This document shows positions 14,995-41,075 of a DNA stretch of 48,070 nt, piece by piece. This DNA comes from a virus (lineage: Duplodnaviria; Caudoviricetes), in the IMG/VR virus record IMGVR_UViG_3300006129_000002, positions 1-48,070 of that record; one strand, given 5' to 3'. The position numbers were made by a program, and so were the translations under genes. The notes under the pieces were generated by a model. That model searched no databases, was not told the DNA's origin, and saw only the letters and a program-made list of their open reading frames with translations. The first letter of the stretch is position 1; each line of letters starts with the position of its first letter.

Positions 14995-15095
14995 GACGAC
15001 GCGTAGGCCATCCCAATTGCGCACGCATAGATGATCAGGCCTAGAACGGCGGTGATCAGGGCGGCATCGACCGCCATCCAGAAAAACCGATTCAT
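14991..15095 (-). CDS. 34-aa membrane peptide
   Basis: MNRFFWMAVDAALITAVLGLIIYACAIGMAYASS; exactly fills the gap with ATGA overlaps on both sides. Confidence 0.6.
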   Translation of the reverse strand: MNRFFWMAVDAALITAVLGLIIYACAIGMAYASS

Positions 15096-15793
15096 GCCTT
15101 GGGCCTCGCAATAAGGGTTTGCGCCACGCCGTCGCGCATTTCGTGCGCCTTGATCGTGGCTTTGACGGTGATGGCTCCGCGATCCCAACCTTTGGAGCCC
15201 TTGTAGACGATCACGTTGCCGTCGGCGTCGTGGCAAATGTTGACATAAAGGTTGCCGAACTCGCTGGCGAAAGTGAGGACGTTTTTGACCGTCAACGAGA
15301 AGTCCCGCCGCTCGCCCACAGAGCCCACGTGGCGGCTTGTCGCGGAGTCGTGAGCCTTTTGCTCGGCCCGGCGCGCATCGCGCTCCACGGCGTAGCCCTC
15401 GGCCTTGGCGAGCGCTTCCCGGAGCAATTGGGTAATGCGTTGCGACGGTGCGCCCCAATGCCCAAAACCCCGCTCGCATTCACGCCACAAGAAATTGCCG
15501 TAATCGCCTGTCGGCCAACGGACTTTGGCGGGGGCAGTCGTGCACGTGCAATGCGGCCGACCGTCAAGGCAGGCTTCGGAGTGATCAGGATAACCGTCGT
15601 CGCCCATGATGCATTGCGGCCCAAGAACCGATTGCGCGGCAAACTCGCCCTCCTGGCGATAATATGCAATGAGGCGCTTGCCGTCCGGATTGTCGGCCAG
15701 CCATTGCTTTGCGCGCTTGGCATTGGCTCGCATGTGAATGGAGTGCTTGACGGCGTTATCGTAGGCGTCGGGATACTCAATGTCGGCTCGCAT
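15092..15793 (-). CDS. Hypothetical protein with C-terminal OB-fold-like domain
   Basis: SD TAGGAG upstream. C-term HVGSVGERRDF...DADGNVIVYKG...VKATIKAH...QTLIARP. Confidence 0.7.
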   Translation of the reverse strand: MRADIEYPDAYDNAVKHSIHMRANAKRAKQWLADNPDGKRLIAYYRQEGEFAAQSVLGPQCIMGDDGYPDHSEACLDGRPHCTCTTAPAKVRWPTGDYGNFLWRECERGFGHWGAPSQRITQLLREALAKAEGYAVERDARRAEQKAHDSATSRHVGSVGERRDFSLTVKNVLTFASEFGNLYVNICHDADGNVIVYKGSKGWDRGAITVKATIKAHEMRDGVAQTLIARPKA

Positions 15794-15856: not shown

Positions 15857-16774
15857 CTAGCCCACGACGTAACCTTGCTCCACCAATTGCGCATGGGTCC
15901 AGCCTTGCGCGATGAACGCATCGTAAGTCGCGCCGGCGGCCTTGGCGGTCATTTGCGGACCAGCCGGCGGCGCGGGAGGGGCGACGGGCGGGATGTATCC
16001 GCCGTAGGGTTGCGGTGGTGCGACGGGTGGCCCTTGAACCGATATGACGAGCGGCTGATGCGGGATAGGCGGTGCGGCAATGGGCGGCGCAATAGCTACT
16101 TGCGGGGCATTAAGGTGCGCGACCGGCGATGGCATCGGACCCGACGCCACAGGGATATGCGATGCGCCAGGGGGAAGGGCCGCCGGCGCTCCGAAGGCTT
16201 CGTTGGCGTCTGGGCCGCTCACGATCTCCGGGCCATAGCCCGAGAGCTCCAAGAGCGACAGGTTGACATACAGCCCCGGCTTCTGGACGTCGCCATTGGG
16301 CTGAACGTTGCCATTGACCCGCACGTAATATCCGGTCTTGATCGCCTTCGCGTCATAAATTTGATCGGCCGGGTCATAGCGGCCAGCGTGAAAGCACTTG
16401 GGCGCGAAACCCGAGGTGAACCGCACGACCCAATGGCCCGCAAAGCCCTCGCGCGACGACCAGGGCTTGCCCGTCGTGTCGAACCCGTCGCCATCGATGA
16501 TCTTCCACGCGAACGAAGGAAGGATGCACGGACCGCCGCCGGGGAACAGGTTGGGAAAGCCAGCCCGCGCCTCCGCGTCGAGAATCGCATAGAACGCCGG
16601 CCAGGCCGGATCGGTCTTGGCGAAGGCCACGGCCACGAACCATTGCGGCGACGGCTGGCCGGCGTTCGGCCCGGACTTGACGACGCGGAGATTACCCTTC
16701 TGATCCTTGGTTTGCGGCTCGAAGGGGGAGCCCTGGACCAATCGGCCCACGGGCGTGGTAAAGATGCTCGCCAT
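15857..16774 (-). CDS. Putative ssDNA-binding protein with Pro-rich C-terminal tail
   Basis: TPVGRLVQGS...FAWKIIDGD...IKTGYYVRV...PGLYVNL; located next to the Cas4-like nuclease and polymerase. Confidence 0.65.
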   Translation of the reverse strand: MASIFTTPVGRLVQGSPFEPQTKDQKGNLRVVKSGPNAGQPSPQWFVAVAFAKTDPAWPAFYAILDAEARAGFPNLFPGGGPCILPSFAWKIIDGDGFDTTGKPWSSREGFAGHWVVRFTSGFAPKCFHAGRYDPADQIYDAKAIKTGYYVRVNGNVQPNGDVQKPGLYVNLSLLELSGYGPEIVSGPDANEAFGAPAALPPGASHIPVASGPMPSPVAHLNAPQVAIAPPIAAPPIPHQPLVISVQGPPVAPPQPYGGYIPPVAPPAPPAGPQMTAKAAGATYDAFIAQGWTHAQLVEQGYVVG

Positions 16775-29451: not shown

Positions 29452-29615
29452 GCGCGAACATGGACGAAACCAAATTCGAGCCCGGCACGTTTGACGTGAT
29501 CCGAATGCATTCTCCGGAAATTGGGTTGCTTTCGTCTATCGCGGTGAGCCTGAAGCGCATCGCCGACGCGACCGAGCGCGAGGAAGTGACCGGCGAGCCT
29601 CACGCCGACGAATGA
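29448..29615 (+). CDS. 55-aa hypothetical protein
   Basis: GGAGG SD and ATGA overlaps at both ends; contains SIAVSLKRIADA. Confidence 0.55.
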   Translation: MSANMDETKFEPGTFDVIRMHSPEIGLLSSIAVSLKRIADATEREEVTGEPHADE

Positions 29616-31195
29616 CCTTCGATTGGCTAAATCCCGACTATGTGCCGATCTTTCAGGAACGGGCCGACCGGCTGGCCTGGCTCCGGGCCGACAAGTCGCG
29701 CGTTGACGCGCTGAAGCGCTACTACCGTGACCATCCCGCGGACTTCATCAACGATTGGGGCATGACGTTCGACCCCCGCAACCCCGAGATCGGATTGCCT
29801 GCGACGATCCCCTTTCTCTTGTTCGACAAGCAGCGGGAATGGGTCGAAGAGACGATTTACCTTTGGAAACATCGCGAACGGGGCATAAGCGAGAAGAGTC
29901 GGGATTGCGGGCTTTCCTGGCTGGCCGTCGCCACGGGCTGCACGCTCTGCCTGTTCAATGACGGGCTGAATATCGGCTACGGGTCACGCAAGGAAGAGTA
30001 TGTCGATAAGCTCGACAGCCCGAAAAGCCTCTTCTGGAAACTGCGAATGTTTCGACGCCTGTTGCCCATCGAATTCAACGGCGGTTTCGACCTGAAAGCC
30101 GACGCGCCCCATATGCGCATGAATTTCCGGGAGACGGGCAGTTACATCACGGGGGAAGCCGGCGACGGCGTGGGGCGAGGCGACCGGGCATCAATCTATT
30201 TCGTGGACGAATTTGCGTTTTTCGAGCGGCCGCAACTGGTCGAAGCGTCGCTCTCGATGACGACCAATTGCCGTATCGACATATCGTCGGTGAACGGCCG
30301 GGCCAATCCTTTCGCGGAAAACCGCCATAGCGGCAAACATCGCGTCTTTATTTTCGATTGGCGCGACGATCCCCGCAAAACCCAAGAATGGTATGACCGC
30401 CAGAAAGAGACGCTCGATCCCGTCGTGCTGGCCCAAGAGGTGGACCGGGACTATAGCGCGTCCGTCGAGGGCGTCTTGATCCCAAGCGCGTGGGTCGAAG
30501 CGGCCATCGACGCGCACGCCAAGCTAGGCATCGCGCCGGCGGGGCGCTTCGTGGGCGGCTTCGACGTGGCGGACGAGGGCCGGGATATGTGCGCCTATGC
30601 GGTGCGCCAGGGCGTTGAGCTCCTGCATCTGGACGAATGGAGCGGCAAAGGCTCCGATACGCTGGGCAGCACTCAGCGCGTCGCGGAGACGCATGAAGCG
30701 ATGGGCGTCGAGGAAACCCGGTTCGACGCGGACGGCGTGGGCGCGAGCGTGCGGAGCGACGCCAGGGTGATCAACGAACGGCGCGTCGAGACGGGCCGGG
30801 CGGGCTTGCACTTCATGCCTTACCGCGGGAGTGCGGGCGTTTATCGCCCCCGCGCGCAAGATGAGCCTGGCCGCTTCAACGAGGATTTTTTCAAGAATCG
30901 CAAGGCGCAAGACTGGTGGAATTTGCGCCGTCGGTTCCGGGCGACTTATCGCGCCGTCAACGGCGTGGCCGGGTGGGAGCCCGACGAGATAATCTCGATC
31001 AGCCCGACCCTTCCGCTTTTGTCGCGCCTCAAGGGGGAGCTCTCTCAACCGACATGGGACCGCGACACCGCGGGCCGGATCGTCATCGACAAAGTTCCCG
31101 ATGGCACGCGAAGCCCTAATCTAGCGGACGCAGTCAACATCGCATACAGTGTGGGCCGATCCCCGATGCAAATAGCGGATGACGCGTTGAAATGA
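29612..31195 (+). CDS. terL: Terminase large subunit
   Basis: EKSRDCGLSW (Walker A variant), YFVDEFAF (Walker B), nuclease GFDVADEGRD, SPNLADA. Confidence 0.93.
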   Translation: MTFDWLNPDYVPIFQERADRLAWLRADKSRVDALKRYYRDHPADFINDWGMTFDPRNPEIGLPATIPFLLFDKQREWVEETIYLWKHRERGISEKSRDCGLSWLAVATGCTLCLFNDGLNIGYGSRKEEYVDKLDSPKSLFWKLRMFRRLLPIEFNGGFDLKADAPHMRMNFRETGSYITGEAGDGVGRGDRASIYFVDEFAFFERPQLVEASLSMTTNCRIDISSVNGRANPFAENRHSGKHRVFIFDWRDDPRKTQEWYDRQKETLDPVVLAQEVDRDYSASVEGVLIPSAWVEAAIDAHAKLGIAPAGRFVGGFDVADEGRDMCAYAVRQGVELLHLDEWSGKGSDTLGSTQRVAETHEAMGVEETRFDADGVGASVRSDARVINERRVETGRAGLHFMPYRGSAGVYRPRAQDEPGRFNEDFFKNRKAQDWWNLRRRFRATYRAVNGVAGWEPDEIISISPTLPLLSRLKGELSQPTWDRDTAGRIVIDKVPDGTRSPNLADAVNIAYSVGRSPMQIADDALK

Positions 31196-33045
31196 GAACA
31201 TGGCTTCGCAACTGGCTCATGGGCGGAACGGCCCCCGAAGCCGTGACCACGGCCCCCGCGTCCCGGCCAGCGCTTAAGGTCTCGCACGAAGCCGAAGCGC
31301 TCTCGCGCGTCCCGGAGCGAACCCTAGACGAATGGCGCTCGATCCTTGAGCCCGCCGCCCCGACGCCTGGAACCGTGCCGCCAGACTTCAGGCCGCAGCC
31401 CGTCACGGTGGCCATGGACGACATCGGCGGCCTTAACGCATGGGGCTCGGGCGCGTTCTATGACACGGGCATATCGTTCCTCGGCTATCCCTACCTCGCT
31501 GAATTGTCGCAGCGCCCGGAATATCGGCGCGCGGCGGAGGTGGTCGCGAAGGAAATGACTCGCAAGTGGATCGAATTCACGACGACCGGGGACAAGGATA
31601 AGGCGGATCGGATCGCGAAGCTCGAAGAGGGCTTCAAAGCTTTTAAGGTGCAGAAGCTCTTTCAGAAAGCCGCGGAGCTCGACGGGTATTTCGGGCGCTG
31701 TCACCTGTTCATCGACGTCGGCAACCGGGACGCCCAAGGCGAGCTCGAAACCATCCTAGTGCGCCGCAAGAGCAAAATTTCCGTCGGCTCGCTCAAGGGT
31801 CTTCGGATCGTCGAACCGCTCTGGACCTACCCGGCGACATACAACAGCAGCGATCCGCTCTCACCCGCCTACTACAAGCCCGACGCCTGGTTTGTCATGG
31901 CGAGGAAGGTCCACGTCTCGCGCTTGCTGACATTCGTGGGTCGCGAGGTTCCCGACCTGCTGAAGCCGTCCTATATGTTCGGCGGTCTGTCGCTGACGCA
32001 AATGGCCATGGACTATGTCAACAATTGGCTTCGGACGCAGCGGAGCGTGGGCGACACGATCCATAGTTTCTCGAAATCGATCCTCGCCACCAACATGGAT
32101 AGCGTCCTTTCCGGCGGATCGGCCGACAGCCTGTTCAAGCGCGCGGCCCTGTTCAACAATGCGCGCGACAACAAAGGGCTGATGCTTCTCGACAAAGAGA
32201 CAGAGGAATTCATCGACGTATCGACGCCACTCGGGACGCTCGACCATCTGCAAGCCCAAGCGCAAGAGCAAGTGTGCAGCGTGAACGGCATTCCCTTGGT
32301 GATCTATACGGGCATCACGCCCTCGGGCCTCAACGCCACCAGCGAGGGGGAATTGACCGTCTGGCATGATTGGGTCGCCGCGCAACAGGAACACCTGTTC
32401 CGGGACAATCTCGAATATATCTTGGACGTCATGCAGCTTCATTTGTTCGGCGAGGTTGATCCCGACATCGGCTTCAAATTCGTGCCGCTCGGGGAGACGG
32501 ACGAGGCGCTAGAGGCGAACGTCCGCAAGACCCAGGCTGACACCGATCAGGTCTATATCGACGCCGGCGTGATCTCCCCCGAGGAAGTGCGCGCCAGGAT
32601 CGCCAAGGACGGCGACAGCGTGTATCGAGGGCTCGACCTGTCTGTCATGCCCGAACCGCCGGATGACGGTATCGAATTAGACGATAACGGCGATCCGGCT
32701 ATGGACGGCGACGATCAGCCTCGGGATGAAGACGGCAAGTTTTCCGTCGAGCGGATGAATTCGAACACAGGCGAATTCGAGAAACACCATTTCCAACGCG
32801 GCGACTATGTGCGCGCAAGTTTTGGCGGGTCAAAACCGCATTTTGGTAAGATCACGGGGGTTTCGCACGCGAAAAAGACCTTCAATATCGGAAGCGTGTC
32901 CTATCCGCACGGGTCGGCGTATCATGCCGAAGAGCCCAAAGCTCCGCCGCGAAAGACCGAAAAACTGTCAAAGACCATTGAGCGCTCGAACGCCAAGCAC
33001 GGGGAAGGGCTGACGGATGCGGACCGCGTCCCCGAAAACTACTAG
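31192..33045 (+). CDS. Portal protein (DUF1073 family) with C-terminal extension
   Basis: FLGYPYLAELSQRPEYRR, HVSRLLTF, GITPSGLNATSEGE, GVISPEEVR; directly follows terL. Confidence 0.88.
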   Translation: MRTWLRNWLMGGTAPEAVTTAPASRPALKVSHEAEALSRVPERTLDEWRSILEPAAPTPGTVPPDFRPQPVTVAMDDIGGLNAWGSGAFYDTGISFLGYPYLAELSQRPEYRRAAEVVAKEMTRKWIEFTTTGDKDKADRIAKLEEGFKAFKVQKLFQKAAELDGYFGRCHLFIDVGNRDAQGELETILVRRKSKISVGSLKGLRIVEPLWTYPATYNSSDPLSPAYYKPDAWFVMARKVHVSRLLTFVGREVPDLLKPSYMFGGLSLTQMAMDYVNNWLRTQRSVGDTIHSFSKSILATNMDSVLSGGSADSLFKRAALFNNARDNKGLMLLDKETEEFIDVSTPLGTLDHLQAQAQEQVCSVNGIPLVIYTGITPSGLNATSEGELTVWHDWVAAQQEHLFRDNLEYILDVMQLHLFGEVDPDIGFKFVPLGETDEALEANVRKTQADTDQVYIDAGVISPEEVRARIAKDGDSVYRGLDLSVMPEPPDDGIELDDNGDPAMDGDDQPRDEDGKFSVERMNSNTGEFEKHHFQRGDYVRASFGGSKPHFGKITGVSHAKKTFNIGSVSYPHGSAYHAEEPKAPPRKTEKLSKTIERSNAKHGEGLTDADRVPENY

Positions 33046-34744
33046 TCCCGTCCGCCCCAACGTCGGGCTTCGGATCGCATATCAAAAGCGGCTCGATAAG
33101 CTGATTGCGGAGATGCACAACAGCGTGGACTATTGGCTGTCAGCAACATACCGCGCCAATCCGCCAGAAATGGCCGCTGACGCCTCTCCCGCCATGATGC
33201 TACGTGCAGCCCTGCGACGGCTCGGACGCCGCTGGCTGCGACGCTTTGACGCCCTGGCGCCGGAATTGGCGCGCTACTTCGCGACGGACGTAAGCGAGCG
33301 TTCCGATGCGGCTTTCCGGTCCTCATTGCGCCGGGCCGGCTTCACCGTGAAATTCAAGGCGACGGCCGCGCAAAACGACGCATTGCAAGCGATCATCGGC
33401 GAGAATGTCGCGCTGATCCGGTCGATCCCCCGCAACTATCTGACGCAGGTCGAAGGATCGGTCATGCGCTCCGTGCAGACGGGCCGCGACCTTGGGACGT
33501 TGACGAAAGAGCTCCAGGGCCATTACGGGGTCACGAAGCGCCGGGCCGCTTTCATCGCGCGCGACCAGAACAACAAGGCGACGGCGGTCCTCACGCGCAC
33601 GCGGCAACAGGAGCTTGGAATCACCAAGGCCAAATGGTTGCACAGTGCGGGCGGCAAAACGCCCCGGCCGGAACACGTAGCTTTCTCGGGGAAAACCTAC
33701 GACGTCGCGACCGGGGCGTATCTAGAGGGCAAATGGACATGGCCCGGCGTCGAAATCAATTGCTTTCCGCCGGAAACCCTTGTGACGCTAAAAGATTTGC
33801 CCCGGAAAATCTGGAAAACGCCTTTCGATGGAAAAATGATCGACGTTGACCTTGGCGGCTGTTCGATCAAGGGAACATTGAATCACCCAATACTCACCGC
33901 GCGGGGGTGGGTCGCTATGGGCGAGCTTGATTGCGGCGATCAAGTCGTTTGCGTGGCGCAACAAGGTGGGGACGTGATTGGCCACAACGAAAACCAAAGA
34001 ATAACCACATTTGGCGAGCTTTTCGTAACGTGCGCGAGTGTGTTTGGAGATGTTCGCAGAGACGCGAGCCGATTTAACTTCTATGGCGAGCGGCCACAAA
34101 ACCACGTCGATGAAGTAATTATTATCGACGATGACTTGCGTATCGATGGGCAAACCTCCGCCGCGCAAAATCTCCGCAACTTCATGTTCGGCAAAACCGA
34201 CCCCGTGGTAATCGACGCCTTTGAGGGCCGCTTCGGCCATGTTTCGAACGCGCCGACGACGCGCGGGGGCTACGATCTTTCGCCTTTCGTCGTCGCTGGC
34301 ACGCGCAAACCGATGGACGTTTCCGCCGCTGCGATCACGCATGACGCCGCGACGGATGAGAACATTGCGAATGCTGGACGCAGCATGTCGCGGAAAGCCC
34401 AAGGCGGCGGCAATAGCTGTCGTCCCCAAGCCTTCCGCATACATCTGCACGATGGCGTCGCCAAGTTCGTCCCAATTGGTCCGCCGCTCGATGGCGACGT
34501 TTTGCGCTTTGAGCTTTTTGCTCAATTCGTCCACATTGCAGCCAACAGCGGTTGCCGCGTCCTGGAGTTTGACGCCGTCCGCTATCAATTTCGCAGCGTG
34601 GTCAATAAGGTCATCTCGGATTATTCGGGGCATGTTTTCACCATGGAAACGCAAGACGGATACTATACCGTAGGCGATGCGTTTGCACAGGCTAAAAATT
34701 GCCGATGCGTGTCCGTTCCGATCATTCCGGGCTTCGAAGAGTAG
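33017..34744 (+). CDS. Head morphogenesis protein (MuF/SPP1 gp7-like) containing an intein
   Basis: RAAFIARDQNNK, KWLHS, PRPEH. Removing the insert restores WPGVEIN-CRCVSVP. Confidence 0.9.
   Translation: MRTASPKTTSPVRPNVGLRIAYQKRLDKLIAEMHNSVDYWLSATYRANPPEMAADASPAMMLRAALRRLGRRWLRRFDALAPELARYFATDVSERSDAAFRSSLRRAGFTVKFKATAAQNDALQAIIGENVALIRSIPRNYLTQVEGSVMRSVQTGRDLGTLTKELQGHYGVTKRRAAFIARDQNNKATAVLTRTRQQELGITKAKWLHSAGGKTPRPEHVAFSGKTYDVATGAYLEGKWTWPGVEINCFPPETLVTLKDLPRKIWKTPFDGKMIDVDLGGCSIKGTLNHPILTARGWVAMGELDCGDQVVCVAQQGGDVIGHNENQRITTFGELFVTCASVFGDVRRDASRFNFYGERPQNHVDEVIIIDDDLRIDGQTSAAQNLRNFMFGKTDPVVIDAFEGRFGHVSNAPTTRGGYDLSPFVVAGTRKPMDVSAAAITHDAATDENIANAGRSMSRKAQGGGNSCRPQAFRIHLHDGVAKFVPIGPPLDGDVLRFELFAQFVHIAANSGCRVLEFDAVRYQFRSVVNKVISDYSGHVFTMETQDGYYTVGDAFAQAKNCRCVSVPIIPGFEE
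33761..34699 (+). mobile_element. Intein (313 aa) in MuF
   Basis: Block A CFPPETLV, block B GTLNHPILTARGW..GEL..GD.V, block F YSGHVFTMET..GYY, terminal KN followed by +1 Cys. Confidence 0.9.
33788..34633 (-). CDS. Antisense HTH + Vsr/DUF559-like PD-(D/E)xK endonuclease nested in the intein (candidate homing endonuclease)
   Basis: Two HTH-like segments (LQDAATAVGCNVDELSKKLK; YAEGLGTTAIAAALG), then E..VAEIL...TQ..VDNNYFIDVVL..LAIEVK...RYEKLAKCGY. GGTGA SD before ATG 34633 (alternative ATG 34654). Confidence 0.8.
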   Translation of the reverse strand: MPRIIRDDLIDHAAKLIADGVKLQDAATAVGCNVDELSKKLKAQNVAIERRTNWDELGDAIVQMYAEGLGTTAIAAALGFPRHAASSIRNVLIRRGVMRDRSGGNVHRFARASDDERRKIVAPARRRRVRNMAEAALKGVDYHGVGFAEHEVAEILRGGGLPIDTQVIVDNNYFIDVVLWPLAIEVKSARVSANISKHTRARYEKLAKCGYSLVFVVANHVPTLLRHANDLIAAIKLAHSDPPPRGEYWVIQCSLDRTAAKVNVDHFSIERRFPDFPGQIF

Positions 34745-34931
34745 CTAGGAAGTCGCGCCGCGGATCGGGCTCCATGTTGAGAATGGCCCGGATCGCCACG
34801 GCGGCCGGCGGGCTTGGGCCTTTGCTGGCGAAGGTCCGCCCCGTGCGCTCACTGACGCCAAGGACGCGAGCCGCGCCGACAATGGACAGATCGAGGGCGG
34901 CCAGGTGCGCCCGATACTCCGCGCCGGTCAT
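34722..34931 (-). CDS. Small HTH DNA-binding protein
   Basis: MTGAEYRAHLAALDLSIVGAARVLGVSERTGR. Confidence 0.7.
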   Translation of the reverse strand: MTGAEYRAHLAALDLSIVGAARVLGVSERTGRTFASKGPSPPAAVAIRAILNMEPDPRRDFLATLRSPE

Positions 34932-35236
34932 TGGGTCGCCTTTTCAATTACGCGCCGGGCGTCATAAACGCGCCGGATCGCGTCGGCGTGCGATTCGCAC
35001 CGGATGACGATATTCGGCCCGTCGTAATACAGATCGTCGGCCACCAGCATGGACAGAGCGGCCAGCAACGCCCCGGACCAATTGGGCGCGGCCTTCGGCT
35101 TCGGATCGACCAGCGCCGCGCGGGCTTCAAGACGTCGAAGCCCGTAATTGTTGAGCGTGTCGGGGTTTTTGCGCGCCGAAGCTTCCGCCGCCGCCAAAAG
35201 CCACGTTTCGAGAATTTGAAATTGTTCGTCGGTCAT
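34928..35236 (-). CDS. Hypothetical protein
   Basis: ATG 35236 after GGAGGGG SD; ATGA-coupled to the HTH gene. Confidence 0.6.
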   Translation of the reverse strand: MTDEQFQILETWLLAAAEASARKNPDTLNNYGLRRLEARAALVDPKPKAAPNWSGALLAALSMLVADDLYYDGPNIVIRCESHADAIRRVYDARRVIEKATQ

Positions 35237-35266
35237 TTGCGCCCCTCCGCCCGAAGCCTCCGTTTG

Positions 35267-35306
35267 TTGACCGTGCAGTAATTGCACGGATTGACGGGAC
35301 GGTCAA
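35267..35306. promoter_or_regulatory. Operator pair upstream of the inverted two-gene cassette
   Basis: TTGACG-GGAC-GGTCAA (35291-35306) and a degenerate TTGACC-GTGC-AGTAAT (35267-35282). Confidence 0.55.
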
Positions 35307-36306: not shown

Positions 36307-38373
36307 ATGCGCCGTTTTCTTTCCGCGCTTTGCGCGCTCCTGATCGCCGCGCCGGCGTTCGCCGCAACCGCGCCGGCTATTCCGCCGCCCGCCCCCTCGA
36401 CGCCGCCGGCGATCATCTACCCGCAAGCCTTGGCGCGCGCGACGGCGTTGAACCAGGCGAACGCAAGCCCGGCAGTGATGGCGTCGCCTCCGACGATCAC
36501 GATCAGCGCGAGCTACAACAATGGGGCGGCCGCGCAACGAGCCGGCAATCAGTTTGCCCAAGTGTTTGTGCCGGGAACGAGCACAATTAACTCTAAGTAT
36601 TTTACATATTACGGCATTCCGCCTGTTCCAGCAAATAAGTATAACGCTAGTTGGTCGGCCACATTTGCTCGGCAATTAAACAATTTAGTTTTCAATGCGG
36701 GCGTTTACACTGCTTCTTACGAGTTTATGTATTCTTGCGCGGCCAACGCTTCGGGAAGCTGCTCTTTCGAAGCCGCGTTTTTTAATAAAGACGCCTTCAG
36801 CCAATACAGCCAAGACGTTTACCAAATATTTGTGGACAATGTCCCGGCGACGGCAACGGGGCAATGGTACACGGCGACGGCGGGAAATAACTACAACGTC
36901 AACGTCGGCGGCATAACTCCCGGCACGCATCTTATCCGCATTCGAACCGCTCAACCCTTTGGCGGCATCGGTTACGGGCCGAATGACAGCATATTTGCTT
37001 CCCCGAAAGCCGCGCCGTCGGCTCTAATTTTCTGTGACTCGTACTGCGATGGCGCTTGGACTTCCTACACATACACGAATGGTCAGACTGGCTTCGGCGC
37101 GTTTGAGGGCTGGGCCACGCGGCTTTGCGACGTCCTAAGCATCAAAGATTGCTGGCAGGAGGTAGAGCCTGGCACGGGCGTAATGAACACGGGTTCGCTT
37201 GCCGCGCCGTTGCAATTCACAGCGCCTTTCGCGGTGAATGCGGTGGGCGGCAATCTCAATGCCGTTTGGACGGGTTCGACGGCGACGCTTTTCGCGATGT
37301 TCTCGACTGGTGAACAGCGGACAATTAGCGTCACGAACGGGTCAGCGGCAGTTACGTGGACCGGGGGCCTCACTCAAGCGGCAACGAATCAAGTCACGAC
37401 CCTTGCGACCGGCACTCTTGTAGCTTTTGCCTCATTCACAGACTCGACGCACGGCGTTCTGTCGGCAACTTGGGGCGGCTCAACGTGCACAAACTGCACG
37501 CTTGTTCTTGCCGAACCGAACGGGATTGGCGAGACGGTCTCGGCGACATTTACGAACGGGAGCGCGAATGTCAGTTGGACGACACCGTTGACCGGGTCAC
37601 CTTGGTTGGTTGCGACCCTATTCACCGGATCGTCGTCCACTACCGGGAAAGGTAATTTCCTTCAGCGCGCCAAGTCTCTCGCGCTACAGTATCCTACTTT
37701 TAGCCCGGCGATCATCGTCGTCCAAGGGTCGGTGAATGACACCGTCGCCCTCGGATACAGTCATGCGCAAGTCCAAGCGACTTACACTGAAATGCTTAAC
37801 TTCGTAAAAAGCACTTGGCCCAACGCTAAAGTCTTCTTCACAGGCAATCTATATATCCGCCAGCATAACCAAGTGACCAACTACCCGGCTTTGGACACGG
37901 ACCTTCAAACGGTGGCGGCGGCTTTCCCCTCGATACCGTTCTATGACCCGTATGCTTTGGGCCTGTTTGGCGGCCTCGGGGCAGCTTGCGTTCCCTATTC
38001 CGGGACGATCACTTTTAGCCCCACGCCTAGCAATGGCGCGACTAGCGGAACGCTCACCGCTAACTGGTATGGTACGACCGGCACTAACTTCACTCTCAAA
38101 TTCTGGAACGGAACCAGCTACGACACGAAGACCAACGTGACCTTGACTAACAACACAAACACCGTTTCGTTTTCGGCTTTGTCGCAAGCCCCCTCGACGG
38201 GCGTTGTGGAATATTATTCCGGCACGACCGCGAACAATGGCCCCGCGGACGTCGGCCAATCGTGTTCGTCGTCAAATTCCGGGCCGGATATTCACCCGAC
38301 CTCGCGCGGCAACCAGTTGGTTGCGCAAGGGCTTGCCGGGTTCATTCAAACCTGGCTGGCGGCAAATCCGTAA
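36307..38373 (+). CDS. Secreted SGNH/GDSL-type esterase with inserted beta domains
   Basis: Signal MRRFLSALCALLIAAPAFA. Block I IFCDSY, block III VQGSVND, block V DIHP. Confidence 0.72.
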   Translation: MRRFLSALCALLIAAPAFAATAPAIPPPAPSTPPAIIYPQALARATALNQANASPAVMASPPTITISASYNNGAAAQRAGNQFAQVFVPGTSTINSKYFTYYGIPPVPANKYNASWSATFARQLNNLVFNAGVYTASYEFMYSCAANASGSCSFEAAFFNKDAFSQYSQDVYQIFVDNVPATATGQWYTATAGNNYNVNVGGITPGTHLIRIRTAQPFGGIGYGPNDSIFASPKAAPSALIFCDSYCDGAWTSYTYTNGQTGFGAFEGWATRLCDVLSIKDCWQEVEPGTGVMNTGSLAAPLQFTAPFAVNAVGGNLNAVWTGSTATLFAMFSTGEQRTISVTNGSAAVTWTGGLTQAATNQVTTLATGTLVAFASFTDSTHGVLSATWGGSTCTNCTLVLAEPNGIGETVSATFTNGSANVSWTTPLTGSPWLVATLFTGSSSTTGKGNFLQRAKSLALQYPTFSPAIIVVQGSVNDTVALGYSHAQVQATYTEMLNFVKSTWPNAKVFFTGNLYIRQHNQVTNYPALDTDLQTVAAAFPSIPFYDPYALGLFGGLGAACVPYSGTITFSPTPSNGATSGTLTANWYGTTGTNFTLKFWNGTSYDTKTNVTLTNNTNTVSFSALSQAPSTGVVEYYSGTTANNGPADVGQSCSSSNSGPDIHPTSRGNQLVAQGLAGFIQTWLAANP

Positions 38374-41075
38374 TGAGCATTCCCTATACGTTTGCCGACC
38401 AGGGCGACAAGCAGGTACCGGCGGAACACCTTGACGCCAACTTCGCATATCTGCTCGGGCTCGCGGCGGGGGTCGAATGGGCGGCAGTCCTAAGCCGTCC
38501 TTCGAACCTTTCCGCGCTCTCCGGATCGGAGGTCATTCAAAACGCCATCCTGCAAGCGGCCCTGCTTGGCGGAAGCGTGATCCCCCAAATCTCGACGCAA
38601 GTCCAAGGCCAGGGCACGCAAGCGACGCTCAATTTCACCGCCGGGACTAGCGCGCCGACTTCCCCGCAAACCAAAGACCAATGGTTAGACACCAATACCA
38701 CGCCGGCGGTTTTGAAAGTGTGGAACGGGGCGGCGTGGGTTATCGCCACGCCCACTAACACGAACCAATTGACCGACGGCGCATACCTTGGGCAAACGGC
38801 GCTCTGGAATTCCGTGAGCTCCCGGCCGAACAACCTCACGACGCTGACCGGCTCCGAAGCAATCCAAAACACGATTCTGCAATATGCGTTGCTTGGCGGC
38901 AGCGTTGTCCCCTACGTTTCGTCGTATATCACCGGCCAGGGGACGCAAGCCGTCCTCAACTTCACGGTGGGGACGTCCGCACCTCCAAGCCCGCAAGTCA
39001 AGGACCAGTGGCTAGACACCAACTACAGCCCGCCCTTGTTCAAGACATGGAACGGGTCGGCCTGGGTCAGCGCGACGCCGAACAACACGAACCAACTCAC
39101 CGACGGCGCGGCGCTCGGGCAAACGGCTGTCTGGAACTCCGTGGGTTCTCGACCGAGCAACCTCACGACCCTGACAGGCGCGGAAGCGATTCAAAACACG
39201 ATCCTGCAAGCGGCCTTGCTTGGCGGAACGGTGGTTCCCCACATAGCGTCTTACGTCAACGGCCAGGGCACGCAAGCGACGCTCAATTTTACCGTCGGCA
39301 ATTCGGCCCCGTCATCGCCGCAAGTCAGTGACCAATGGTTAGACACCAATTACAGCCCGCCTCTGTCGAAAACGTGGACCGGGTCAACGTGGATCGTTTC
39401 GACGCCTACCGACACGACCCAACTTCACGACGGGGCCAATCTCGGGCTAACGGCGCTCTGGAATTCCGTGAGCTCCCGGCCGAACAATCTCACGACGCTG
39501 ACCGGCTCCGAAGCGATTCAAAACGCGATCCTGCAATCCCTGCTGACGGGCGGCAGCGTTGTCCCCTACCTGTCGTCGTATATTAGCGGCCAAGGCACGC
39601 AAGCTGTCCTCAACTTCACGGTCAGCACGTCGCCGCCTTCAAGCCCGCAAGTCAAAGACCAATGGTTAGACACCAATTACAACCCGGCGCTCTTTCGGTT
39701 TTGGAACGGGTCTGCCTGGGTGGTGGCGACACCCACGAACACGAACCAGCTTGCCGACGGGGCGAACCTTGGCCAAACGGCGACATGGAGTCTCATAGGT
39801 TCGCGCCCCTACAACCTCACGCAACTCGGGGGCGGCGAAGCGATTCAAAACGCTATCCTGCAAGGCAACCTGACATCCGGCAGCGTGATCCCCTACCTGT
39901 CGTCGTATATCAGCGGCCAGGGCACGCAAGCCGTTCTAAACTTCACGACGGGTTCGACCGCGCCTTCAAGCCCGCAGGTCAAAGACCAATGGTTAGACAC
40001 CAACTACAGCCCGGCGCTTTTCAAATTCTGGAACGGTTTCAATTGGGTGGTGGCGACACCCACGAACACGAACCAGCTTGCCGACGGGGCGAACCTTGGC
40101 CAAACGGCAAGTTGGACCTTGGTCGGCTCGCGCCCCTACAACCTCACGCAACTCGGGGGCGGCGAAGCGATTCAAAACGCTATCCTGCAATCCCTGCTGA
40201 CGGGCGGCAACGTCATTCCCTACATCGCTGGCCAAATCCAATATCAAGGCGCGTTGGCGACGCTCAACAAGGCGACGCAGCTAACCTATCTCTCGGGCAG
40301 CGTTTGCATTCAGGGCGTCATTCAAATTCGATTGGGGGCCGCTGGCGGGGTATCGACGGCCCCTGGCGATACGCTCACGATCACAGTAGGGTCATATTCT
40401 GAAACATATACCGCTGTTTCGAGTGCTCCGGGCGCGTTCCAATTTGTTGCAAGTAACAGCAACACCGCATCGGCCGCAAACCTAAGCTCGGCAATCGCGG
40501 CATATAGCTCGATACTGACAAATGTTTCGTCTTCGGGCTTTTATGTTTCAGGGACTGTGCTCGGGCAAAATATCGGCGGAACGGATACTTTCGGCGCGCA
40601 TTATACGAACGTTTCTTTTACGCTGAATTTTTCCGGGCTAGGCGCGGCGACGTGGACCACCGCGGGGACGAACACGGCGACGTGGACAAATACCTCGGGA
40701 CCAATCCAAGTTGCGTTGCAGGGCCTCAACACCATTGCCACGCATGGCGGCAATATGCGTATCACGTTGACGCTCACGATGACGTGGAACCAAGCTAACG
40801 GAATGTATTTCGGCCCTAGCCTTTCGCGGGCGGCGGGCTCGCCAAGCGGATCAAGCGCCTTCAGTCAGACGCGTAATTTGCTTTACGCTTCCGGGCCGGC
40901 GGGCAATGGGCCGCTCACTATCGAAATGAGTTGGACAGACACCGGCTTAGCCGGCCACGCCGGGAACGCAAAATATAATTTCCAGCTTGGCGGCGCGAAT
41001 TACAATCCGGGCGCGGGATACGGCACGGTCACAGTGTCGGGCTATGAAATAGTCTTTGAGGAATTCATCTCATAG
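38373..41075 (+). CDS. Long repeat-containing fibre-like virion protein (~900 aa)
   Basis: ATG 38373 overlaps the upstream TAA. N-term IPYTFADQ...LDANF, 109-aa repeats, beta-rich C-terminus. Confidence 0.75.
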   Translation: MSIPYTFADQGDKQVPAEHLDANFAYLLGLAAGVEWAAVLSRPSNLSALSGSEVIQNAILQAALLGGSVIPQISTQVQGQGTQATLNFTAGTSAPTSPQTKDQWLDTNTTPAVLKVWNGAAWVIATPTNTNQLTDGAYLGQTALWNSVSSRPNNLTTLTGSEAIQNTILQYALLGGSVVPYVSSYITGQGTQAVLNFTVGTSAPPSPQVKDQWLDTNYSPPLFKTWNGSAWVSATPNNTNQLTDGAALGQTAVWNSVGSRPSNLTTLTGAEAIQNTILQAALLGGTVVPHIASYVNGQGTQATLNFTVGNSAPSSPQVSDQWLDTNYSPPLSKTWTGSTWIVSTPTDTTQLHDGANLGLTALWNSVSSRPNNLTTLTGSEAIQNAILQSLLTGGSVVPYLSSYISGQGTQAVLNFTVSTSPPSSPQVKDQWLDTNYNPALFRFWNGSAWVVATPTNTNQLADGANLGQTATWSLIGSRPYNLTQLGGGEAIQNAILQGNLTSGSVIPYLSSYISGQGTQAVLNFTTGSTAPSSPQVKDQWLDTNYSPALFKFWNGFNWVVATPTNTNQLADGANLGQTASWTLVGSRPYNLTQLGGGEAIQNAILQSLLTGGNVIPYIAGQIQYQGALATLNKATQLTYLSGSVCIQGVIQIRLGAAGGVSTAPGDTLTITVGSYSETYTAVSSAPGAFQFVASNSNTASAANLSSAIAAYSSILTNVSSSGFYVSGTVLGQNIGGTDTFGAHYTNVSFTLNFSGLGAATWTTAGTNTATWTNTSGPIQVALQGLNTIATHGGNMRITLTLTMTWNQANGMYFGPSLSRAAGSPSGSSAFSQTRNLLYASGPAGNGPLTIEMSWTDTGLAGHAGNAKYNFQLGGANYNPGAGYGTVTVSGYEIVFEEFIS
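38440..40270 (+). repeat. 327-bp (109-aa) coding tandem repeat, ~5.5 units
   Basis: DQWLDTN anchor at 38676, 39003, 39330, 39657 and 39984 (spacing 327). Confidence 0.92.

Follow-up and report, generated by a model that had tools for sequence, protein, structure and literature searches.

The window analysed here, a stretch of 48,070 nucleotides, belongs to a tailed-phage genome with a GC content of 61%. Its MuF gene is split at an IN|CRC motif by a 313-aa insert that carries intein-like blocks A, B and F/G, with the coordinates and motifs that the first-pass annotation had given, and the opposite strand of this insert contains a codon-aligned ORF of 281 aa (34633..33788), as had also been described. 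The features that bear on the locus are these:

29612-31195, terminase, upstream of MuF
31192-33045, portal, upstream of MuF
33017..34744, + strand, MuF ORF including the insert, 575 codons
33017..33760, + strand, MuF N-extein, 248 aa, C-terminus ...PGVEIN; phage head morphogenesis, SPP1 gp7-like
33761..34699, + strand, putative class 1-type intein, 313 aa (Cys1 ... Asn313, Cys+1); 939 bp = 313 codons
33761..33787, + strand, block A, CFPPETLVT; the sole N-terminal part outside the overlap with the antisense ORF
33875..33889, + strand, block B, T-x-N-H-P; its opposite strand encodes the conserved W-V-I-x-C motif of the putative nuclease
34001..34120, + strand, sense codons 81-120, constrained on both strands (T-F, F-x-G-D); opposite the predicted catalytic strands of the nuclease
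34121..34600, + strand, sense codons 121-280, stop-free linker, largely an antisense shadow to judge from low pLDDT and selection bins
34622..34699, + strand, blocks F and G (YSGHVFTM...AQAKN), with G290, H291 and N313 conserved
34700..34744, + strand, MuF C-extein CRCVSVPIIPGFEE, in agreement with the ends of intein-free MuF relatives
33788..34633, - strand, antisense gene for a putative homing endonuclease, 281 aa, ATG at 34633, in exact codon register
34343..34633, - strand, two predicted helix-turn-helix (HTH) domains (residues ~1-46 and 55-97), Pfam HTH_23 E 1.6e-6
33815..34216, - strand, predicted Vsr-like nuclease domain, residues 140-273, with E149, Q166, D176, E185 and K187
34631..34633, - strand, start ATG, the reverse complement of the block F His291 codon CAT; supported by codon conservation
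34642-34638, - strand, Shine-Dalgarno-like GGTGA; many relatives have GGAG(G) at the same position
34667-34662 and 34689-34684, - strand, promoter-like element: -10 TATAGT and degenerate -35 TGTGCA, respectively, with a 16-nt spacer

The N-extein matches Pfam Phage_Mu_F (E 1.1e-9) and PHROG 324, head morphogenesis (E 3e-75), and other genes of the window encode head protease, major head, sheath and baseplate proteins. Among cultured phages, the nearest MuF relatives occur in Klebsiella, Pseudomonas, Aeromonas and Burkholderia phages. The public runs that contain this phage's DNA are freshwater metagenomes; none of the 24 public runs listed for this DNA is an RNA run, and there is no Rfam match within the window. 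Two large plus-strand ORFs lie downstream of MuF. One (36307-38373), within the head gene cluster, encodes a 688-aa protein with a signal-peptide-like N-terminus and an SGNH/GDSL hydrolase-like domain (E 4.9e-7, under the curated cut-off). The other (38262-41075), between MuF and the head protease, is a 937-aa ORF that probably begins at a later ATG; it contains about five imperfect repeats of ~110 aa, each with the unit 'DQWLDTN...F/LKxWNGSAW', and its weak matches are to virion structural PHROGs and DUF2510.

Read on the sense strand, the insert (33761-34699) begins with CFPPETLV and closes with ...AQAKN just before CRC; TLNH occupies codons 39-42. The residues by which class 1 inteins are recognised in sequence (Cys/Ser1, TxxH, a terminal Asn and Cys/Ser/Thr+1) are all present, and Cys1, Thr39, His42, Asn313 and Cys+1 are kept in all 28 distinct inteins of a set drawn from 41 loci (minus 7 duplicates and 6 that were incomplete or could not be parsed). 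Pfam Intein_splicing is matched by 18 of 25 family members, this phage's copy reaching only a non-significant E of 0.1. An AF2 model of the sense insert, built from 25 sequences, has confident ends and drops below pLDDT 50 at residues 124-247. Its best structural match is 2cw8, a HINT fold (Z 12.5, rmsd 1.5 Å over 108 residues), and the top 32 matches are HINT domains without exception; the model is thus a HINT fold with a disordered middle, much as the first-pass annotation, which had expected Hint halves only, foresaw. As for an in-frame endonuclease, Pfam returned only HINT-type families for the 25 intein members, bar one weak DUF7609 row. This outcome, the low pLDDT of the middle and a sense pN/pS near 1 in that region agree with the earlier statement that no LAGLIDADG or HNH motif is recognisable in the insert's own frame. 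From its motifs and modelled fold, the insert is likely to be a self-splicing intein.

Intein-less MuF alleles, which had been named as something to look for, exist: Among the closest MuF loci (the best 80 of 393 in viral contigs), 72 lack the insert, and in these the equivalent of Asn248 is followed directly by Cys-x-Cys, the protein ending ~14 residues on. The same site is occupied in the other eight, which represent four distinct loci, one of them this phage, with inserts of 313-323 codons. Natural empty alleles such as those of L047 and L075 agree with the intein-free MuF junction at 35 of 42 bases. In an extein tree of 75 rows, obtained by a quick search and with 7 of its 11 intein-bearing rows coming from the nuclease search, those 11 rows need 9 label changes, at least 5 of which are forced by well-supported branches; since the mean after shuffling is 10.4, the intein rows are not clustered. 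One intein-bearing locus (L053) and one intein-free locus (L057) share 88-97% identity per 100 bp over the 700 bp before the junction. Exteins and nucleases disagree in their relationships: Loci L013 and L092 have exteins 84% identical and nucleases 33% identical, and the L013 nuclease shares 49-60% identity with the nucleases of five loci whose exteins are only 48-62% identical. As read from these sequences, the patchy distribution and the incongruence would fit repeated invasion of a single site, and losses could have contributed to the patchiness. No joint skipping the intein was found in contigs of four runs; with coverage partial in three of these, the result has no bearing on empty alleles in that population.

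The antisense protein has six close relatives at 48-54% identity and 329 cluster representatives among its relatives at E<=0.001. The ORF list gives an upstream TTG start (34654, 288 aa), and Met stands at the position of 34633 in 121 of 130 family members. Its AF2 model has a mean pLDDT of 93.5. The HTH part resembles the GcrA DNA-binding domain (DBD; Z 7.0) and the Tc3 HTH (Z 6.5), and the best match of the nuclease part (116 residues, 140-273) is Vsr, 1CW0 (Z 10.7, rmsd 3.3 Å), followed by 3HRL (Z 8.9) and I-Bth0305I, 3R3P (Z 8.6, rmsd 3.7 Å over 92 residues). Foldseek ranked 3R3P first with an E of 0.004, which misses the 0.001 significance line, and the family profile retrieved 3HRL at E 1e-5 and 3R3P at E 0.034. 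Over 130 family members, Pfam assigned HTH_23 to 65, REase_MTES_1575 to 31 and DUF559 to 8. Searches with the single sequence gave only chance matches in the PDB and only the HTH in Pfam, the nuclease being visible only by profiles and folds. Both parts that had been expected of this protein, an HTH region and a Vsr/DUF559-like nuclease, were thus obtained in fold and profile checks, and homologs and selection agree with them. Scans of metagenome contigs and genome contigs with the close alignment, which depend on two short patterns, gave no relative among 597 and 535 candidate stretches, respectively, counts that imply no absence.

The arrangement of the two frames recurs. An antisense, codon-aligned gene inside an intein-motif frame occurs at all 40 loci found via the antisense protein (36 viral contigs, four of which are copies of this phage, and four GenBank phages). 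When loci were instead picked by their sense splicing motifs, 79 of 80 had an in-register antisense ORF matching the nuclease profile; because these 80 were the ones most similar to this intein out of at least 474, the sample is biased to its family (26 of the 80 were re-examined one by one after the first parse). Measured in 30 inteins, the antisense ORF starts at the block F His and reaches its stop at intein codon 2-14. The 80th locus (L205:1501-2000) is a mini-intein of 166 aa that occupies the same CRC-type site and keeps FHGD in its sense frame. Its antisense frame is broken, its block F His is replaced by Asp, and it is likely a derivative that lost the nuclease. Among the cultured carriers are Gordonia phages Vivi2 and Affeca, Aaphi23, Klebsiella phage KpTDp1 and the Salmonella phages STP-1, BPS11Q3 and sidste. 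A related intein with an ...ITHN|CAKR end and a different C-extein sits in the head morphogenesis gene of Virus Rctr197k (L123).

The signature of selection changes along the insert. In 56 pairs at 60-99.5% identity, and with the same result whichever strand guided the alignment, variability at sense codon positions 1/2/3 is 0.18/0.10/0.50 in block A, 0.31/0.14/0.32 in the overlapped block B, 0.46/0.20/0.33 in the middle and 0.16/0.11/0.38 in blocks F-G: Position 3 exceeds position 1 in blocks A and F/G, and position 1 exceeds position 3 in the middle. Uncorrected pN/pS in the middle is 0.26-0.57 for the antisense and 0.62-0.98 for the sense frame in 44 of the 45 pairs listed, which are not independent of one another; the closest pair of the 45, with 15 changes, has a sense pN/pS of 1.99. 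Pairs at 84-88% nucleotide identity give 0.26-0.30 (antisense) and 0.88-0.97 (sense), and this phage against its five closest relatives gives 0.48-0.56 and 0.86-0.97. The proposed strand-by-strand comparison thus places purifying selection in the middle on the antisense protein. The shadow-stop codons TTA, CTA and TCA are entirely missing from 28 nuclease genes, against ~150 expected from extein codon usage; because sense stops face these antisense Leu and Ser codons, which can be avoided synonymously, maintaining the register costs little.

At a finer scale (69 pairs, 20-codon bins), both strands are constrained at sense codons 21-60 and 81-120. The antisense ORF does overlap block B, as had been noted, and there the codons are nearly fixed (His is CAC in 28/28, Pro is CCA in 26/28). 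Within codons 81-120, Gly109 is GGC in 28/28, though the antisense Ala would permit four codons; with nuclease Ala183 encoded by GCC in all 28, sense Gly109 is fixed. T83, F84 and F88 of the sense frame are kept where the antisense residues vary, the model reaches pLDDT 70-85 at codons 81-120, and FHGD recurs in the 166-aa mini-intein. Across codons 121-280, changes synonymous only on the antisense strand outnumber those synonymous only on the sense strand in every 20-codon bin. The earlier view of the sense middle as an antisense shadow therefore holds for codons ~61-80 and 121-280, but not for codons 81-120.

The block F His codon, whose reverse complement is the start, is CAT in 27 and CAC (a GTG start) in one of the 28 inteins, a count that, like those for the promoter below, is inflated by related clades; among extein His codons, 43 of 108 are CAT, and at block B all 28 are CAC. 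In 45 distinct sense-motif loci the block F His is encoded 43 times by CAT and twice by CAC, and four relatives in which this His is replaced (L165, L167, L183 and L193) have a His codon 3-8 codons earlier in the sense frame. The GGTGA and TATAGT boxes lie where the first-pass annotation had put them (34642-34638 and 34667-34662). Across the family, the 80 nt upstream of the start contain a sigma-70 consensus match of at least 10/12 in 16 of 28 inteins, 7 of them perfect, and in none of the 28 does an interior control window reach this level. In 17 of 28 inteins, the top-scoring site ends 28 nt ahead of the start, the distance at which this phage has its -10. This phage's own element has 8 of 12 consensus bases and its interior controls reach 9; a consensus promoter scan did not list the element and returned two other 9/12 sites against 0.7 expected. 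The one of these at 34649-34620 was rejected because it would start transcription inside the antisense ORF. Conservation of codon and promoter across the family supports an antisense gene with expression signals of its own. Directly past MuF, on the minus strand, are two small ORFs, one of 69 aa with a weak HTH match (34722-34931, E 0.1) and one of 119 aa without such a match (34928-35287); since they face the nuclease gene, read-through could transcribe it too.

At a probability of roughly 85%, we consider that the intein-like insert in MuF self-splices and that the codon-register antisense protein, with its HTH and Vsr-like parts, is its homing endonuclease. Late head-gene mRNA would be translated into a 575-aa precursor, from which class 1 splicing through Cys1, the block B Thr and His, Asn313 and Cys+1 would release a 262-aa MuF. 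The nuclease would be produced independently of MuF, from a sigma-70-type promoter, ribosome site and start codon embedded in the antisense strand of blocks F/G. During co-infection, it would cut the intein-free IN|CRC region, and repair would copy the intein in.

A possible objection is that the antisense protein is made and selected for some other role, either as a DNA-binding regulator or as a nuclease directed against co-infecting phages. Its strongest profile matches are, after all, HTH domains, and the catalytic chemistry is uncertain, because Lys occupies position 187 in just 57 of the 130 family members and, past E185, neither His nor Asp is conserved in these 130 (His occurs in at most 11 in any listed column from 186 to 200). 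The core appears from its sequence to be D...E-x-K-like and not EDxHD: The Vsr fold and an I-Bth0305I-like architecture do not establish EDxHD membership when the His-Asp pair is not conserved. Another role is nevertheless improbable, since D176 and E185 are invariant in the 130-sequence alignment (with E149, Q166 and Y173 nearly so), the protein is always found inside this intein, and unrelated intein lineages occupy the site in close exteins.

Less probable still is that the HINT domain lacks efficient ligation, such that it only cleaves, or that MuF is functional or dispensable when unspliced, the insert being a passenger spread by the nuclease. Many inteins have Asp at F4 and a penultimate His, both of which assist splicing; this phage's copy has Thr and Lys at these positions, which vary across the family. 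The C-extein is just 14 residues long, and in the fold search of the sense model the HINT domains of BIL and hedgehog proteins reach the same scores as inteins. These points are outweighed by the splicing residues kept in 28/28 inteins, by a sense frame that is open at 40/40 loci, and by the placement of the insert directly before the conserved CRC motif.

Both open strands reported at first are present, and they are weak evidence taken alone: From the codon usage of the window, the probability that 281 in-register antisense codons stay open is ~0.025, and a longer such frame (306 codons) occurs in one of 22 further genes or gene parts of the window. Although several genes of the window have antisense frames of 230-306 codons in register, the notion that the ORF arose by chance as the shadow of a GC-rich gene, or survives as a dead remnant, can be dismissed on conservation: the 329 relatives, the 40/40 layout, the confident nuclease fold, the purifying selection on the antisense strand and the conserved start and stop positions. 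The genes at 15857-16774 and 15092-15793 (-), with fully open in-register antisense frames of 306 and 234 codons, are taken to carry GC-rich shadows.

Returning to the homing-endonuclease reading, we lean, at slightly better than even odds, towards a broader proposal. The MuF intein family may be an ancient fused two-strand gene, in which two folded proteins are encoded codon against codon. A structured portion of the intein would face the catalytic strands of the nuclease, block B would face its C-terminal motif, and blocks F/G would supply its start codon, ribosome site and promoter. The nuclease would then represent a non-EDxHD, Vsr-fold homing lineage spread over hundreds of phage lineages with enterobacterial to actinobacterial hosts, unannotated in the GenBank records checked, and the family would stand as a very common example in nature of sense and antisense coding in register.

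It had been suspected that non-canonical phage inteins were already published, and the architecture is indeed in print: Gosselin, Arsenault and Gogarten (bioRxiv 10.1101/2025.01.02.630785) describe anti-sense VSR-like nucleases in full inteins of actinobacteriophages, and minor capsid (MuF-type) genes are among the hosts. Their inteins, like this one, are contiguous, with an antisense Vsr-like ORF and a sense middle without recognisable fold. The match to Vsr is nearly equal (their model against 1CW0, Z 10.6 over residues 144-267, with 3R3P retrieved by HHpred; here Z 10.7 over 140-273). The Gordonia phages Vivi2 and Affeca have apparently homologous antisense ORFs in their own MuF inteins, that of Vivi2 being 28% identical to this phage's over 266 aa (E 0.2 against the phage collection and 8e-11 against a small local set). 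Unlike the actinobacteriophages of the preprint, this phage comes from freshwater and its MuF relatives are of proteobacterial type. The preprint's main text contains neither 'start codon' nor 'promoter', and its phages, which may include members of this family, are named in its supplementary tables. In searches of the literature on MuF, antisense-nuclease or non-canonical inteins, the layout was found only in that preprint.

More distant parallels exist. Dassa et al. (2009, PMC2677866) described Vsr-like homing endonuclease genes between split-intein halves (fractured genes), and Taylor et al. (2011, PMC3239194) demonstrated cleavage by I-Bth0305I, the prototype of the EDxHD group, which is defined by a catalytic His general base and a neighbouring Asp. 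As described there, these nucleases share with the present one N-terminal HTH-type repeats, a C-terminal Vsr-fold nuclease, a similar size, and separate encoding beside or within self-splicing elements. They differ in having the EDxHD motif and in their location, which is between the halves of split inteins or inside group I introns, whereas this phage's nuclease overlaps a contiguous intein and is without the EDxHD His-Asp pair. In a different nuclease family, an out-of-frame LAGLIDADG in the cyanobacterial dnaX intein was reportedly recognised by Gorbalenya in 1998. Phillips et al. (bioRxiv 10.64898/2026.09.14.751524) report purifying selection on it; the dnaX case resembles ours in having an overlapping-frame nuclease with its own Shine-Dalgarno motif, under purifying selection, and a relaxed sense frame, and differs in its LAGLIDADG family, its +2 ORF and its cellular host gene. 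An out-of-frame HNH insert is also on record (PMC11855218).

No assay of any antisense intein nuclease was found in the literature compared, and none of 10 GenBank records annotates a CDS antisense to the insert, so that annotation hides a probable mobility gene. An anti-sense VSR-like nuclease in a full intein having been published, this locus is a further example; the details added here are breadth beyond actinobacteriophages, a fixed codon register, the overlap of the nuclease gene with block B, a second stretch constrained on both strands and the lack of EDxHD. Because the architecture is known, the value of the locus is as a clean test case from a family with defined start signals, numerous empty alleles and carriers in culture among Salmonella jerseyviruses and Klebsiella, Aggregatibacter and Gordonia phages, and as a natural model of two opposite-strand proteins constrained in one register.
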